From positions 20,390-84,389 of IMG/VR virus record IMGVR_UViG_3300020718_000007: DNA of 64,000 bases, one strand, 5' to 3'. This stretch comes from a virus (taxonomy: Duplodnaviria; Heunggongvirae; Uroviricota; Caudoviricetes). Shown here in pieces: positions 14,795 to 26,240 of the stretch. The notes beneath the pieces are model-generated. The model was not told the DNA's origin. It saw nothing but the letters and a program-made list of their open reading frames with translations, and did not search any database. The position numbers were made by a program, and so were the translations under genes. Within the stretch, counting starts at the first letter, position 1. Each line of letters starts with the position of its first letter.

Positions 14795-15382
14795 ATGAGC
14801 CCTTATTTGGTAATTGCATACGCAACAAAGAATGATTATTACGAAACATTGTCAAGAAATCTCCAACAATCATGTAAAGATTTTAATATTCCACTACATT
14901 TAGAACTTATTGATTCGTTAGGTTCATGGGAAAAGAATACTCACTACAAAGCCCAGTTTATAAAGGATTCTATAACAAAATTGGATTCCACATCTTTTGT
15001 TTATGTTGATGTTGATGCAGTTTTTAGATCATCCCCAGTACTATTTGATACAATAGATTGTGATATTTCTTTCCGTTTGGAAAATTTTCCATGGAGAAAG
15101 AATGAACCACTAAGTGGTACAGTATACTTTAAAAAATCACCAGAAATTCTTGCTCTTATAGACGAATGGATTAAGATAAATACTGAAACTCCTGCGCAAA
15201 GACGAAACCCTTTGACTTGGGAACAATTCAATATGAAAAGGGCATTGGATCTACATCCAGAATTAGTATTTAATAATTTACCACCTGAATATGTTTTTGT
15301 AGATACACATTCACAAAAGTTATATCCAAATGTAACTCCTATAATTTATCACCATCAAGCAAGCAGGATAACATGTAGATAA
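14795..15382 (+). CDS. GT-A fold glycosyltransferase-like protein
   Basis: YKAQFIK..FVYVDVDAVF DxD motif; WEQ..; C-terminal IYHHQAS. Confidence 0.7.
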   Translation: MSPYLVIAYATKNDYYETLSRNLQQSCKDFNIPLHLELIDSLGSWEKNTHYKAQFIKDSITKLDSTSFVYVDVDAVFRSSPVLFDTIDCDISFRLENFPWRKNEPLSGTVYFKKSPEILALIDEWIKINTETPAQRRNPLTWEQFNMKRALDLHPELVFNNLPPEYVFVDTHSQKLYPNVTPIIYHHQASRITCR

Positions 15383-15434
15383 AATTACCTCCTGGATATA
15401 TATGTATTGCCAACATTATTTAGATATATAGATT

Positions 15435-16235
15435 ATGGTTAAATCTGGAATTTATAAAATAGTTAATAAAACCACGAATAAAATTTATATTGGATCTGCT
15501 GTTAATATAGATAAAAGATGGAATATACATATTAATGAATTAGATAAAAATATACACAGTAATAGCTATTTACAAAATGCTTGGAATAAATACGGGAGAG
15601 AAGATTTTATTTTTTTAGTGATAGAAAATACTGATAGAAATAAAAAAATCCTAATCGAAAGGGAACAATATTATTTAGATTTAGAAAAACCTTATATTAG
15701 AAATATAGGATATAATATTTATAAAACTGCTAATAGTCCGTTAGGTTATAAATTTTCAAAGAGTCAAAAAGGTAATTTATCTTTATTATGGAAGAAGAAA
15801 TATCAAAACGGGTATATAAATCCAACAAAAGGAATTGAAAGAAGCCAACACTCGAAAGAAAAACAATCCCTTTCCATGAAAGAATTATATAAAACAAAAA
15901 TACCCGAATGGAAAGGAAAACAAAGAAATGAAGATACAAAAGAAAAGATTAGATTAAAAAATTCGGGAATGAATAGTCCATTATATGGGCTGCGCGGAAA
16001 AGATCATCCGGCATATGGAAAACAATTAAGAGGAGTGAATCATCCAAATTATGGGAAAAAAGCTCTTAATTCTATAAATGTTCAATTAATAAAGGACAAT
16101 ATAATTATGGATTTTTCCTCTGTGAAAGAAGCAGCTAATTTTTTAGATATAAGTAGATCCACATTAAGATCCTATAAAAATAGAATTTATAATGGATTTT
16201 TAATAAAATTTAATGATCCAAATGAAACTAAATAG
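15435..16235 (+). mobile_element. GIY-YIG homing endonuclease with NUMOD3/NUMOD1 domains
   Basis: SGIYKI...KIYIGSA...RW..H; REQYY; GYNI; HP.YGK repeats; FSSVKEAANFL helix-turn-helix; own GATATATA at 15423-15430. Confidence 0.88.
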
Positions 16236-16974
16236 AGCTATACTTTCTTCGAATGATGATCCAAAATATTTGGATTTTTGGCCTTATGTTTCCAAAGCAT
16301 GGAGGGATTTAATAGGAATAGAGCCTGTTCTTTTTTTTATAGGCGAAGCTGGAAGAGTGGAAGAACTATCTAAATATGGACAGGTTATTCAAGTTCCTGT
16401 GATGCCTGAATGGGATATTGTTAATCAAGCTCAATCAATAAGATTATGGGCCGGAACAAAATTTCCAACGGATACTTTAATAATCTCCGACCTGGATATG
16501 CTTCCCATTAGTAGAAAGTATTATACTGAAAACCTCCCTGAGATACCAGAGGATTTCTTTGTTAGTTATACTAGTGATGTCTTGGAACACGGATTTTATA
16601 GAAGAAGACCAATGTTTCCTATGTGTTATTTGGCAGGTAAAGGAAATACCTTTAATGAAATATTAGGAATTAATGAAAACACTTCTTGGGAATCTTTTAT
16701 GTTAAGTATGAAAAAAGCCAATCATGGCTATGGTACGGACCAACAATACTTTTATTCCAAATATCTTCAGTGGGACGGAAAAGTTAATCGATATGTCGGA
16801 ATGAGAAGAGGTTGGATAGATGGTAAAATAGCAAGAAATAGATTAGATAAAGTTCGTTGGCCAGAAAAGCATGACTATATAGCAGAAGAGTTTTTTGATT
16901 GCCATTTACCACTGCCATTCAAAGATAATCTACACAAATGTAATGAATTGTTTAAAAAATTAAATTTAGTATGA
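16213..16974 (+). CDS. Putative GT-A glycosyltransferase (start possibly 16222)
   Basis: IISDLDMLPI DxD motif, PMCY.AG, GTDQ; located in glycan cluster. Confidence 0.55.
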   Translation: MIQMKLNRAILSSNDDPKYLDFWPYVSKAWRDLIGIEPVLFFIGEAGRVEELSKYGQVIQVPVMPEWDIVNQAQSIRLWAGTKFPTDTLIISDLDMLPISRKYYTENLPEIPEDFFVSYTSDVLEHGFYRRRPMFPMCYLAGKGNTFNEILGINENTSWESFMLSMKKANHGYGTDQQYFYSKYLQWDGKVNRYVGMRRGWIDGKIARNRLDKVRWPEKHDYIAEEFFDCHLPLPFKDNLHKCNELFKKLNLV

Positions 16975-17789
16975 GCAAATTATCAATTATAGTTCCAGTT
17001 GCAGGCGGTGATGGATTCAGACAAAGAAATTTTACACAATGTCTTAAATCTATTGAGGACCAAACTTATAAGGATTATGAAGTTATTATAGTAGAGCAAA
17101 CATTAGATGGAGCATTTTATAAGGAATATGTTAAATCGAAAGGAATGAGATGGGTTGGTATAAAAGATCCATATTCTAGAGGGTTTAATCTTAGTTGGTG
17201 TAGAAATGTGGGAGCAAGAATTGCAGAAGGAGAGAAGATTATATTGATGGATGCAGATATGGTATTCCAGGAAAATTATTTTACAGAGGTTGCGAATAGT
17301 AATTACCCATTTGCTGGTGGTTCTAATTTATATCATTGGATATTCCACGAATCTGCTACCCAAGTATTTCTTGCAGGCAGGAATTTTAATCAACTTTATA
17401 CCTATGGTGGAGGAAGCCATAGGGATCCAGTATTTAGATTTGAGACCTTTACAAAAGGATGTGGATATGGTGCAGTATTAATTTTTGATAAGAAATGGTA
17501 TTGGGAGGAATTTGGTGGTTATCCAGAGGATTTCTTTAGATATGGTTGGGAGGATAAAGCAGCAATAGAAATTATTAAGCATGCGTTAAAGGTAGAAAAT
17601 GATACAGATTTACCAAAAATAAATTATCCTATTATACATTTAAGCCATTATGCAAAGGATGGACTAAATATGAGGGTAAATGAAGATCTATATTACAAAA
17701 TCAAAAATATGGACAAACAACAAATAATAGATAAATCAAAATCCCTAGAGTTAGGGAATATAAATAGACCCCAAAATGTCTTAAGTTAA
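16971..17789 (+). CDS. Glycosyltransferase GT2/GT7-like
   Basis: KLSIIVP, FNLSWCRNVG, LMDADM, FGGYPEDF..YGWED. Confidence 0.8.
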   Translation: MSKLSIIVPVAGGDGFRQRNFTQCLKSIEDQTYKDYEVIIVEQTLDGAFYKEYVKSKGMRWVGIKDPYSRGFNLSWCRNVGARIAEGEKIILMDADMVFQENYFTEVANSNYPFAGGSNLYHWIFHESATQVFLAGRNFNQLYTYGGGSHRDPVFRFETFTKGCGYGAVLIFDKKWYWEEFGGYPEDFFRYGWEDKAAIEIIKHALKVENDTDLPKINYPIIHLSHYAKDGLNMRVNEDLYYKIKNMDKQQIIDKSKSLELGNINRPQNVLS

Positions 17790-24720: not shown

Positions 24721-24748
24721 GAAATTTTTTAAAATAATATGCTATAAT
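24721..24748 (+). promoter_or_regulatory. Putative class II promoter GAAATTTT-N14-TATAAT
   Basis: Directly upstream of kdsA ATG. Confidence 0.55.
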
Positions 24749-24753
24749 TTAAT

Positions 24754-25533
24754 ATGAAATTAATAGCTGGCCCTTGCGTAATAGAGGATGAAAAAATTAC
24801 AATGTCTATTGCTAGGAAACTAAAAAAGAATTTAGACCCGGAGATAGATTTCTACTTTAAGGCAAGTTTTAAGAAAGCTAATAGAACCAGTATTAAAAGC
24901 TTTACTGGTATTCCTTATGAAGAAAGTATCGCCATTCTTAAAAAAATTAAAGAAACCCTTCATTTAAAAGTTTGTACTGATATCCATGAAATATTGGATT
25001 TGGCAGAATTGGATTTCATAGACGTTATACAAATTCCAGCTTTTTTATGTAGGCAAACAGACCTAATAATTGCTGCTGGAAAAACTGGAAAAATTGTTAA
25101 TATTAAAAAAGGACAATTTATGAGTCCGGAAGCAATGTCATTTAGTGTAGAAAAAGCATTATATTCAGGAGCTTCTGAGGTTTGGGTTACTGAAAGAGGT
25201 ACAACCTTTGGTTATAATGATTTAGTTGTCGATGCTACCTCTATTCCAAGAATCAAAACATCATGTGGATGTGTAGCTATTATGGATGCAACCCATAGCT
25301 TACAGAAACCTAATCAAACGTCGGGTATAACACACGGTTCAGATAAATCCCTCTCAAGAATATTAATGAGACAAGCAGTAGTTTCGGGGGCAGATGGAAT
25401 ATTTATGGAAGTACATACAAGTCCAAATGAATCTCTTTCAGATAAAGAAACCATATTACAAATTGATAAAGGTATTAAATGGGCAAACGAAGCATATAAA
25501 ATTTCCAAACTTCTAAAAAACCAAATCGACTAA
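24754..25533 (+). CDS. kdsA: KDO-8-phosphate synthase
   Basis: LIAGPCVIE, KASFKKANRTS, QIPAFLCRQTDL, NIKKGQF, ERGTTFGYNDLVVD, DATHSLQ, DGIFMEVH. Confidence 0.93.
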   Translation: MKLIAGPCVIEDEKITMSIARKLKKNLDPEIDFYFKASFKKANRTSIKSFTGIPYEESIAILKKIKETLHLKVCTDIHEILDLAELDFIDVIQIPAFLCRQTDLIIAAGKTGKIVNIKKGQFMSPEAMSFSVEKALYSGASEVWVTERGTTFGYNDLVVDATSIPRIKTSCGCVAIMDATHSLQKPNQTSGITHGSDKSLSRILMRQAVVSGADGIFMEVHTSPNESLSDKETILQIDKGIKWANEAYKISKLLKNQID

Positions 25534-26240
25534 TGAAAGAGATGGATATAGTCATAGTTAGCTATGCAAAAAACAAAAAATGCTGGGATTTAACATATGA
25601 ATGTATAAATTCACTATTCTCCTCTGAAGAAGAGATAAATTTTAATGTGTTTGTAGTAGAATCCCAAAAGGATGTTAATTGGTCGGAAATCTTTAAAAGA
25701 ACTAAGACAATCTATCCAGAAACTTCTTATGGATACCATAAATATTTGAACCTAGGTAGGAAGGAGGGAAATGCTGATTTTGTAGCACTTTGTAATAACG
25801 ATTTGATATTTAAAAAGAAATGGGCATCAAAAATATTCGAGGCTTCTAATTATAATCCCAATTACTTCTCTTTTTCTCCAATCTGTCCAAAAACTCAGCC
25901 ACTTTATGGAATACAGATAAATTCCGGACTTATCAAAGGTTATATTATTAGAAAACATATTTCTGGATGGTGTATCGTCCAGAAAAGGAGTATATATAAT
26001 ACTATTGGTGATTTAGATGAAAATTTTGTACATTGGTTTGCAGACGAGGACTATGCACAAACTCTAATTGTTAATAATATAAATCATATGTTGGTAACAA
26101 CATCTATAGTAGAGCATCATTCTAATAATTTGGGCAAAACAACAACCGAATTAATTACGGATCCTGATGAATTATATAGATTAACAACAGGTGCTAAGAA
26201 AATATTTGATAATAAATGGAACAAGAATGAAAAGTTATAA
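25533..26240 (+). CDS. Glycosyltransferase family 2
   Basis: DIVIVSY, FVVES, YHKYLNLG, LCNNDL, GDLDENFVHWFADEDY. Confidence 0.8.
   Translation: MKEMDIVIVSYAKNKKCWDLTYECINSLFSSEEEINFNVFVVESQKDVNWSEIFKRTKTIYPETSYGYHKYLNLGRKEGNADFVALCNNDLIFKKKWASKIFEASNYNPNYFSFSPICPKTQPLYGIQINSGLIKGYIIRKHISGWCIVQKRSIYNTIGDLDENFVHWFADEDYAQTLIVNNINHMLVTTSIVEHHSNNLGKTTTELITDPDELYRLTTGAKKIFDNKWNKNEKL

Follow-up and report, generated by a model that had tools for sequence, protein, structure and literature searches.

A predicted glycan-assembly island with conserved edges, kdsD and kdsA in a Lak-related huge phage

Gene content of the island

The 148,389-bp IMG/VR virus record IMGVR_UViG_3300020718_000007, estimated to be 52% complete, carries a block of sugar-enzyme genes between its capsid gene (77-1846) and its baseplate hub and wedge genes (35235 and 43187). 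We analyzed this island in a window of 64,000 nucleotides, bases 20390-84389 of the record; positions are those of the window unless stated otherwise, and negative results given for the record cover its 148 kb. An earlier reading of the same DNA (the original prediction) had placed the island at 14795-26240. Its gene content held, but its end did not: the variable island reaches 27141 and spans ~12 kb. The gene order is identical in two independent assemblies. Megablast found no match between the island and isolated phages, and PHROGs returned none for the island edges or flanks. Judged by its genes (Table 1), the island is a real ~12-kb block of soluble enzymes, predicted to build a complex, methyl-capped sugar chain.

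The major capsid protein indicates that the phage is a Lak-related huge phage. It shares 45% identity with its counterpart in the 462-kb uncultured phage LR756500.1 and 39-40% with those of the Prevotella Lak megaphages, with remoter matches in phages of Tenacibaculum, Flavobacterium and Chryseobacterium. The host is very probably a member of the Bacteroidota, because the Bacteroidota-type -7 element TAnnTTTG lies upstream of several genes, the isomerase KdsD is of the Bacteroides type, and the contig of a relative was binned into a Bacteroidetes metagenome-assembled genome (MAG). A second upstream motif class, CAGAAACTTTT...TAnnTTTG, occurs across the whole record and supports this host assignment, since it matches the Bacteroidota sigma-A -7 element; examples lie upstream of the minus-strand gene at 6813 and of the genes at window-equivalent positions -20208, -5934, 110636 and 120098.

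Profile searches bore out the inventory of the original prediction, which had listed about six or seven glycosyltransferases (GTs), three methyltransferase domains, an enzyme resembling CDP-paratose/tyvelose epimerase, kdsD and kdsA. We count seven GTs, some from Pfam matches and four (14795, 16213, 19855 and 25533) from fold or feature evidence; these four have no Pfam match above cut-off and were assigned by structure. The set combines retaining-type GT-A enzymes, inverting-type GT2, GT31 and GT11 enzymes, and one GT-B. All three methyltransferase domains are present, two stand-alone and one fused to the epimerase-like domain. No island protein contains a hydrophobic (membrane) helix.

Table 1. 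Predicted genes, gene remnants and upstream elements of the island (window coordinates)
Feature	Position	Strand	Type and evidence
Conserved upstream block of the first island gene	14722-14780	+	begins GAAACTTTGTTAA; no GATATATA
Glycosyltransferase 1	14795-15382	+	small GT-A, Nucleotid_trans/GT34/GT8 type; conserved 5' edge
Two GATATATA copies	15395-15430	+	33 and 5 nt upstream of the GIY-YIG endonuclease gene
GIY-YIG homing endonuclease with NUMOD1/NUMOD3	15435-16235	+	PF01541, 45.8 bits
Glycosyltransferase 2	16213-16974	+	retaining-type GT-A, no Pfam family; conserved 5' edge
Glycosyltransferase 3	16971-17789	+	GT2; PF00535, 34.8 bits; weak Glyco_transf_7C match
GATATATA	17814-17821	+	8 nt upstream of the GT31 gene; only copy directly before a sugar gene
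Glycosyltransferase 4	17829-18503	+	GT31-like (Galactosyl_T); PF01762, 33 bits (cut-off 23)
Glycosyltransferase 5	18505-19305	+	GT11 alpha-1,2-fucosyltransferase family; PF01531, 83.8 bits (cut-off 23.9)
Class-I S-adenosylmethionine methyltransferase	19316-19855	+	PF08241, 49.6 bits
Glycosyltransferase 6	19855-20853	+	GT-B, virus-only Glyco_trans_1_2 (CgeB-like) family
NanM-like sugar O-methyltransferase	20846-21625	+	TIGR04371, 49.7 bits (cut-off 44)
Short-chain dehydrogenase/reductase (SDR) and methyltransferase fusion	21628-23199	+	residues 1-340 epimerase-like, 366-502 class-I methyltransferase
kdsD remnant, 37 codons	23230-23343	+	N-terminus of L003-type KdsD, nearly residue for residue
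KdsD, SIS-only arabinose-5-phosphate isomerase	23335-23931	-	PF01380, 68 bits; TIGR00393, 143 bits
TnsA-like PD-(D/E)XK/NUMOD3 homing endonuclease	23924-24670	-	PF08722, 34.9 bits; co-oriented with kdsD
GATATATA	24693-24700	-	upstream of the TnsA-like/NUMOD3 endonuclease gene
KdsA, metal-type Kdo-8-phosphate synthase	24754-25533	+	NF003543, 297.8 bits (cut-off 242)
Glycosyltransferase 7	25533-26240	+	GT2-like GT-A; 1-nt start/stop overlap with kdsA; conserved 3' edge
Probable third homing endonuclease, DUF559/Vsr/NUMOD3-like	26191-27141	+	Atlas feature matches 0.91-0.92, lead only

The GTs at the island edges are best defined by their predicted structures. GT 1 matches PF03407 at 18 bits, below cut-off, and its Atlas feature and structure matches are virus-dominated GT-A clusters; it is 62% identical to its counterpart at the related locus L083 and 48% to that at L007. 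GT 2 has 125 homologues, none of them with a Pfam domain; its SDMDMLP (DxD) motif is invariant, and its predicted model (pLDDT 93) matches the fold of retaining GT6/GT8/GT24 enzymes. At the opposite edge, the model of GT 7 (pLDDT 93) matches the GT2/GT27 group (ppGalNAc-T, WrtF, SpsA), with 63-69% identity to the genes at L003, L083 and L086.

Between the edges, GT 3 is 73% identical to its L003 counterpart. The PF01762 alignment of GT 4 is confined to residues 47-96; this protein is without the membrane anchor of eukaryotic GT31 enzymes, and no homologue was found in the islands of relatives. The GT11 match covers residues 86-263, the catalytic C-terminal region; donor and alpha-1,2 linkage are predictions. 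The Atlas model of GT 6 has a pTM of 0.86, and its nearest clusters are 95-100% viral; in sequence, genes of large T4-like cyanophages, S-SCSM1 gp125 among them, share 28-30% identity with it. Single-sequence PDB searches with 14795, 19855, 25533 and the GT11 protein gave nothing useful.

The methyltransferase at 19316 is called as a 179-aa protein from the ATG at that position in other assemblies; an alternative reading frame starting from TTG at 19229 would overlap the GT11 gene. The fusion protein matches PF01370 at 126 bits and PF13489 at 53.8 bits. The epimerase assignment of the original prediction was upheld by its matches to PDB 9rl0 (E 7e-37) and 1orr (E 8e-35), the next family following at E 3e-18, and the nearest solved relatives of the domain are thus TyvE, well apart from 4,6-dehydratases and GalE. 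Many stand-alone epimerases of ~350-380 aa, homologues that one source names CDP-paratose 2-epimerase, share 60-74% identity with this TyvE-like part, and the epimerase-methyltransferase fusion recurs in ~20 protein clusters.

Both enzymes claimed for the synthesis of 3-deoxy-D-manno-octulosonate (Kdo), KdsD and KdsA, are supported by profile and PDB matches. KdsA scores 292 bits with TIGR01362, under its cut-off of 314, and 175.9 bits with PF00793. It aligns with PDB 1fwn (E 2e-63) such that the Cys/His/Glu/Asp metal ligands of Aquifex KDO8PS coincide and AGPC, DATHS, FME(V/T)H, LSD and KANR(T/S) are all kept; we take the former to be metal ligands and KANRS to be the phosphate motif here as well. 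KdsD, a predicted isomerase of 198 aa, has an SIS domain without the CBS pair and matches the Bacteroides-type PDB 3etn over residues 3-197 (195 residues, E 7e-60). With the two-domain KdsD and KpsF models it stays below cut-off, as a single-domain protein should.

The next steps of the pathway have no gene here. The original prediction had noted that kdsB and kdsC are absent from the window, and neither PF02348 nor TIGR01670 has a match in the whole record, in which no sugar nucleotidyltransferase was found either. Since the record has no kdsB or kdsC, Kdo activation must, on the genes recovered, be provided by the host or by the missing half of the genome. In IMG/VR, kdsA is common (156 related stretches), and kdsB lies directly 3' of it in ~30 of the 80 loci kept from these; the relatives LR756500.1, G002 and G003 have kdsB. 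The 25533-type gene fills the kdsB slot of other phages, the two being mutually exclusive at that position. GT 7 was considered as a KdsB substitute and rejected, because its high-confidence model is a GT2/GT27-type glycosyltransferase and not a KdsB fold.

Conserved edges, swappable middle and mobile insertions

Comparison with relatives reveals a fixed frame around a changing core. In loci that extend far enough, the downstream flank is common to L083-L085 (ENA), L086 (JGI, 453 kb), L003 and L007, and consists of an 80-aa gene followed by genes of ~205 and ~160 aa; tail and baseplate genes come after it in L083-L086. The upstream flank shared by L083-L085 comprises a 242-aa minus-strand gene and a 193-aa gene. 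The same edges recur, 14795 and 16213 on the 5' side and kdsD-kdsA-25533 on the 3' side, and the middle (GT31, GT11, methyltransferases, GT-B and TyvE fusion) has weak or no counterparts. The interior of L083 holds a GT10-like gene, DUF5672 and an epimerase, with kdsA absent, and that of L086 holds GT25, SDR, GT11, KAS-III, acyltransferase, PhyH and aminotransferase genes. By gene order, the island is a fixed slot whose ends are conserved and whose interior is exchanged, arranged like a surface-antigen locus.

Two further observations concern these relatives. L083-L085 keep kdsD and the 25533-type GT2 gene with no kdsA between them (L083:9424-10708). Contig L101 (JAQCAB010000017.1, 30.6 kb), assigned to a 'Bacteroidetes bacterium' MAG, carries the island flank and both edge GTs in the same order, and is therefore a mis-binned phage relative.

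Within these 12 kb lie two certain homing endonuclease genes and one probable one, which the original prediction did not list; none of the three is found at these positions in relatives. The GIY-YIG gene splits two edge GT genes that are adjacent and insert-free in L083. The probable third gene has no Pfam or PHROG match and no homologue in relatives. The TnsA-like endonuclease is associated with a replacement of kdsD. Because the plus-strand remnant matches L003-type kdsD, the original kdsD must have been destroyed and replaced by an inverted endonuclease-kdsD cassette; the working KdsD is a different allele, 49% identical to that of L003. Loss of kdsD followed by its replacement argues for selection on the supply of Kdo.

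Upstream motifs and expression

The motif GATATATA is truly start-proximal: of its 29 copies in the record, 22 stand no more than 40 nt upstream of the start of an open reading frame (ORF) on the same strand (binomial P 4e-32). The number of copies in the window, 13 against 11 expected, does not exceed chance. The motif stands ahead of fibre-like genes (914, 727 and 872 aa), of the gene immediately upstream of the capsid gene and of the one that follows. Its position ahead of fibre-like and head-region genes makes a structural or late promoter class plausible, if unproven. Promoters of the GAAACTTT/TATAATTT type were named as a class beside the GATATATA promoters.

The original prediction had linked late-type motifs at five sites to the island. 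Those at 15395, 15423 and 17814 are exact copies of GATATATA, and a further one lies at 24693 on the minus strand; those at 14707 (AATATATA) and 19301 (TATAAATA) are not copies. Three of the four exact copies precede endonuclease genes, with which they were plausibly brought in. The T4 late consensus TATAAATA was rejected as a promoter, being start-proximal in only 3 of 48 occurrences, with no enrichment. Relatives mostly do without GATATATA: L003 has one intergenic copy, L086 none, and the sole copy in L083 lies inside a gene. The first island gene is preceded instead by a block of ~55 nt that is ~85% conserved relative to L083; outside this block the spacer shows no conservation.

A different signal marks kdsA. 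The same 11 nt, TATAATTTAAT, stand directly before the ATG of kdsA (24743-24753) and of the gene for the N-terminal part of the DNA polymerase (window-equivalent 87957-87967), the longest start context shared by any of the 10,585 gene pairs of the record. This suggests that the two genes are under a common regulatory or initiation signal. Scans for sigma-70 promoters and for terminators gave results not clearly above those of shuffled sequences, and no plus-strand terminator was detected inside the island. Late expression of the island, as originally proposed, is weakly supported, because the exact copies are mostly endonuclease-borne and one alone precedes a sugar gene, two of the proposed sites are not copies, the islands of relatives mostly have no such motif, the first island gene has another upstream block, and the polymerase gene and kdsA have a start context in common. 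Transcription of the island is probably mixed, not purely late.

Candidate acceptors and known counterparts

What the island was originally proposed to do, virion glycosylation, has two parts. A multi-linkage, O-methylating assembly line with the first two Kdo steps does lie in the structural region. For the acceptor, a phage (virion) protein is the best single reading, one to which we give somewhat less than even credence. KdsD would convert ribulose-5-phosphate to arabinose-5-phosphate, which KdsA would condense with phosphoenolpyruvate to Kdo-8-phosphate; dephosphorylation by KdsC, activation to the cytidine monophosphate (CMP) sugar by KdsB, GDP-fucose and nucleoside diphosphate hexoses would be supplied by the host or by the unrecovered genome half. 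The island enzymes would then build, in the cytoplasm, a short branched heteroglycan containing fucose, probably Kdo, and O-methyl caps. Its invariant inner part would be made by the edge enzymes (14795, 16213 and kdsD-kdsA-25533) and its strain-specific outer part by the swappable middle. The glycan would be placed on the phage's own proteins, for example capsid or fibre, for which a protein glycosyltransferase from another part of the genome, such as a GmaR/SunS-like GT2 enzyme with tetratricopeptide repeats (GT2-TPR), would do the priming, and related phages would end up with different surface 'glycotypes'.

We favor phage proteins, on circumstantial grounds, because the enzymes are all soluble, the edge families are dominated by viruses and one of them is linked to GT2-TPR protein glycosyltransferases. 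The Atlas clusters of the edge (14795) and GT-B families are 88-100% viral. The 16213 family occurs at 8 loci among 185,579 species genomes, all of them MAG contigs and one a mis-binned phage. In MAGs of Chlamydiae, Simkaniaceae, Verrucomicrobia and Bacteroidetes, it adjoins GT2 and GT10-fucosyltransferase genes, and these neighborhoods (L102, L105, and the compact operons L103:7935-12641 and L107:7935-14321) look like small clusters of soluble glycosyltransferases; no lipid-carrier gene was seen among the neighbors examined. The L103 and L107 operons hold a GmaR/SunS-like GT2-TPR, and in two clusters, from a Chlamydiae MAG and a Verrucomicrobia MAG, this protein is 39-42% identical to the product of a phage gene outside the island (L094:14400-15626, record 118400-119626). 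In IMG/VR the family of this gene has at least 556 matches, some of them in giant-virus MAGs. The best solved relatives of the phage GT2-TPR are GmaR, SunS and the GT2 chain 7msk (E 7e-11 to 6e-6, N-terminal domain only). We take GmaR to be the flagellin O-GlcNAc transferase, and both GmaR and SunS to glycosylate proteins or peptides. This connection is the best, albeit indirect, pointer to protein glycosylation, and no protein-priming glycosyltransferase is recognizable inside the island.

Several findings weigh against phage proteins as the acceptor. In phages, the GT2-TPR gene does not stand beside island-type glycosyltransferases: such adjacency was looked for and not found, and in 31 of 80 loci the gene shares synteny with that for the N-terminal part of the polymerase, so that the link rests on the bacterial operons. 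The edge enzymes match the folds of lipopolysaccharide (LPS) and O-antigen enzymes as well as those of protein glycosyltransferases, and the Mucilaginibacter homologue of 25533 sits in a polysaccharide cluster with an ATP-binding cassette (ABC)-transporter ATPase. L083 has kdsD and the GT2 gene without kdsA, and the link to late promoters is weak. Finally, neither PF04413 (WaaA/GT30) nor PF05159 (KpsC/KpsS, GT107) finds a Kdo transferase in the record (GT99 and GT140 were not searched); with no such enzyme recognized and kdsB and kdsC not found, use of Kdo by the island is something we infer.

A more specific version of phage-protein glycosylation, with cassette-swappable glycotypes in which a Kdo/fucose/O-methyl glycan is placed in the cytoplasm directly onto capsid or fibre proteins and priming is done by GT2-TPR together with virus-specific retaining glycosyltransferases, is a tentative proposal that we consider rather doubtful. 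Residues 232-262 of the major capsid protein form a 50% Ser/Thr stretch, and fibre-like genes outside the window encode G-S/T-rich repeats; both are possible O-glycan acceptors. If correct, this arrangement would be the phage counterpart of bacterial O-antigen diversity and giant-virus fibril glycans, and its product the first Kdo-containing protein glycan.

The glycan may instead remodel the host envelope, which we consider unlikely. The soluble enzymes would act on host undecaprenyl- or lipid A-linked intermediates, with priming, export and ligation left to the host, and the LPS, O-polysaccharide or capsule would change; phage exclusion, lower loss of progeny on debris and escape from grazers are possible gains. 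This is the usual published reading of cyanophage islands, including S-SCSM2R with its kdsA and kdsB (PMC12801897, PMC9602691), and the chemistry of the island (GT11, GT31, GT2, sugar O-methyltransferases, TyvE-like epimerase and Kdo) is typical of bacterial surface polysaccharides. Consistent with it are the Mucilaginibacter homologue of 25533 (38-41% identity), which has two GT11 genes, one GT10 gene and methyltransferase genes beside the ABC-transporter ATPase, and KdsD, which is of the Bacteroides 'capsule formation' type (3etn). The close stand-alone relatives of the TyvE-like domain, a few of them named from bacterial MAGs, and the upstream context that kdsA shares with the polymerase gene, which fits early or middle Kdo supply, point the same way. 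However, outside the epimerase, identities to cellular homologues are low (22-40%), and the edge families, nearly absent from cellular genomes, would be unexpected for a host-specific lipid-linked acceptor. The record contains no WaaA and no priming phosphoglycosyl transferase (Bac_transf), which an O-antigen or capsule locus would be expected to have; searches by name did not extend to flippases, ABC transporters, polymerases or ligases. The absence of membrane helices and the location of the island within the virion-structure region also speak against envelope remodelling.

Hypermodified DNA is a much less probable acceptor. The glycosyltransferases would then decorate a hydroxylated or hydroxymethylated pyrimidine, possibly with Kdo, against restriction or CRISPR. 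Phage GT-B enzymes have been reported to add a Kdo-mass sugar to 5-hydroxymethylcytosine and to build di- and trisaccharides on DNA (bioRxiv 10.1101/2023.12.21.572611), poly-arabinosylated 5-hydroxycytosine is known (PMC13326640), and phage DNA glycan clusters contain LPS-related glycosyltransferases, sometimes near structural genes (Pyle et al.; Lee et al.). Among cyanophage homologues of the island GT-B, one carries the annotation 'DNA beta-glucosyltransferase', and a T4 glucosyltransferase cluster is among the GT-B feature neighbors, at rank 69. At a distance of ~20 kb from its Kdo operon, LR756500.1 has a very divergent thymidylate-synthase homologue (L099:1375-2256, minus strand), which scores 55 bits where the cut-offs exceed 300. 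Yet known DNA glycan clusters are defined by a base-activating enzyme, either a C5 methyltransferase with 5mYOX or a ThyA homologue, whereas neither PF00303 (thymidylate synthase) nor PF00145 (C5 methyltransferase) is found in this record, which covers 52% of the genome, and a ThyA-like gene lies within 10 kb in only 1 of ~80 viral KdsA loci. Known DNA glycans have three sugars at most, far short of what seven glycosyltransferases and three methyltransferase domains imply, and GT11 and GT31, families that elongate glycans, are not known to have any link to DNA.

Another soluble acceptor, be it a non-virion phage protein, a host protein (for takeover or anti-defence) or a free or lipid-bound non-LPS oligosaccharide, seems improbable: all island enzymes are indeed soluble, cellular 16213 clusters adjoin putative adhesin or effector genes (an inverse-autotransporter beta-domain in L102, an Ank/AvrB-like gene in L103) and GT2-TPR is a core gene beside replication genes in the phage lineage, but an exchange of middle genes between strains is what exposed surface structures typically show, rather than an intracellular regulatory modification, and seven linkages plus capping are excessive for a regulatory mark.

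The consequences depend on the acceptor. A glycan on the particle would give huge phages a variable coat of sugars, which might control adsorption, adhesion to mucus or particles, how grazers or antibodies recognize the phage, and how related phages compete, and Kdo would gain a role outside LPS and capsules. A glycan on the host envelope or DNA would make the island a sizeable case of host-surface takeover or of chemistry against restriction. Whichever holds, its glycosyltransferases form a soluble, compact and virus-specific set that includes the 16213 family, for which there is no Pfam model, and the recurrent epimerase-methyltransferase fusion is a target for characterization.

Virion glycosylation has been described for mycobacteriophages, where cytoplasmic glycosyltransferases modify the C-termini of capsid and tail-tube proteins with a shielding effect (Freeman et al. 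2023, as presented in PMC12619734). As far as that account goes, the two systems are alike in that phage-encoded glycosyltransferases act, or would act, in the cytoplasm on capsid or tail-tube subunits. Those phages have few such glycosylation genes and infect Actinobacteria, and we know of none with Kdo or fucose genes. Among giant viruses, PBCV-1 and Mimivirus likewise decorate capsids or fibrils with virus-encoded, host-independent soluble glycosyltransferases and methyltransferases, in clusters that differ by clade, but these are eukaryotic viruses. CroV and Fadolivirus carry arabinose-5-phosphate isomerase (API), Kdo-8-phosphate synthase (KdoPS) and CMP-Kdo synthetase (CKS) genes next to glycosyltransferases and sugar methyltransferases (PMC9614988); CroV has the whole Kdo pathway, and this phage its first two steps.

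On the cellular side, locus L090 of Mucilaginibacter sp. PAMC 26640 combines the 25533 homologue with GT11, GT10, GT2 and methyltransferase genes. It differs in its ABC-transporter ATPase, its many more glycosyltransferases and its identities of 22-41%, and no export or priming component was found in the phage island.

A further counterpart is the Kdo operon of LR756500.1. Besides the related capsid, its KdsA (54% identity), KdsD (51%) and 14795-type GT-A (36%) make it a version of a similar variable sugar locus. There, kdsB directly follows kdsA, in the position that the 25533-type GT2 gene occupies here, and a KpsC/KpsS-like GT107 Kdo transferase (PF05159) is present. Its KdsD (L087:203-1429, minus strand) is fused to an extra, unassigned N-terminal domain of ~200 aa.

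Among the closest known systems are the islands of large T4-like cyanophages, labelled for LPS or cell-wall synthesis and modification. ORF113-135 of S-SCSM1 include gmd, fcl, an alpha-1,2-fucosyltransferase, several glycosyltransferases and methyltransferases (PMC9602691), and S-SCSM2R carries kdsA and kdsB (PMC12801897). Like the island described here, these are long co-directional gene runs of lytic phages in which soluble glycosyltransferases are joined by fucosyltransferases, by methyltransferases and by sugar-nucleotide enzymes; S-SCSM1 gp125, a 29% identical homologue of the island GT-B, adjoins an alpha-1,2-fucosyltransferase gene, and the S-SCSM2R KdsA is 43% identical to ours. The present island differs in its Lak-related lineage and Bacteroidota host, its other edge enzymes, and its possession of kdsD and kdsA without kdsB or gmd/fcl, as well as in its slot between head and baseplate genes, its conserved edges, its homing-endonuclease inserts and its replaced kdsD. 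Comparable fucose/methyl/Kdo islands are thus already known in large phages, and with the general phenomenon described for cyanophages the gain is incremental. What is new here, as read from gene content and order, is the fixed slot with conserved edges, the endonuclease-driven replacement of kdsD, the 16213 family with its bacterial operons, and the pairing of kdsD and kdsA without kdsB.

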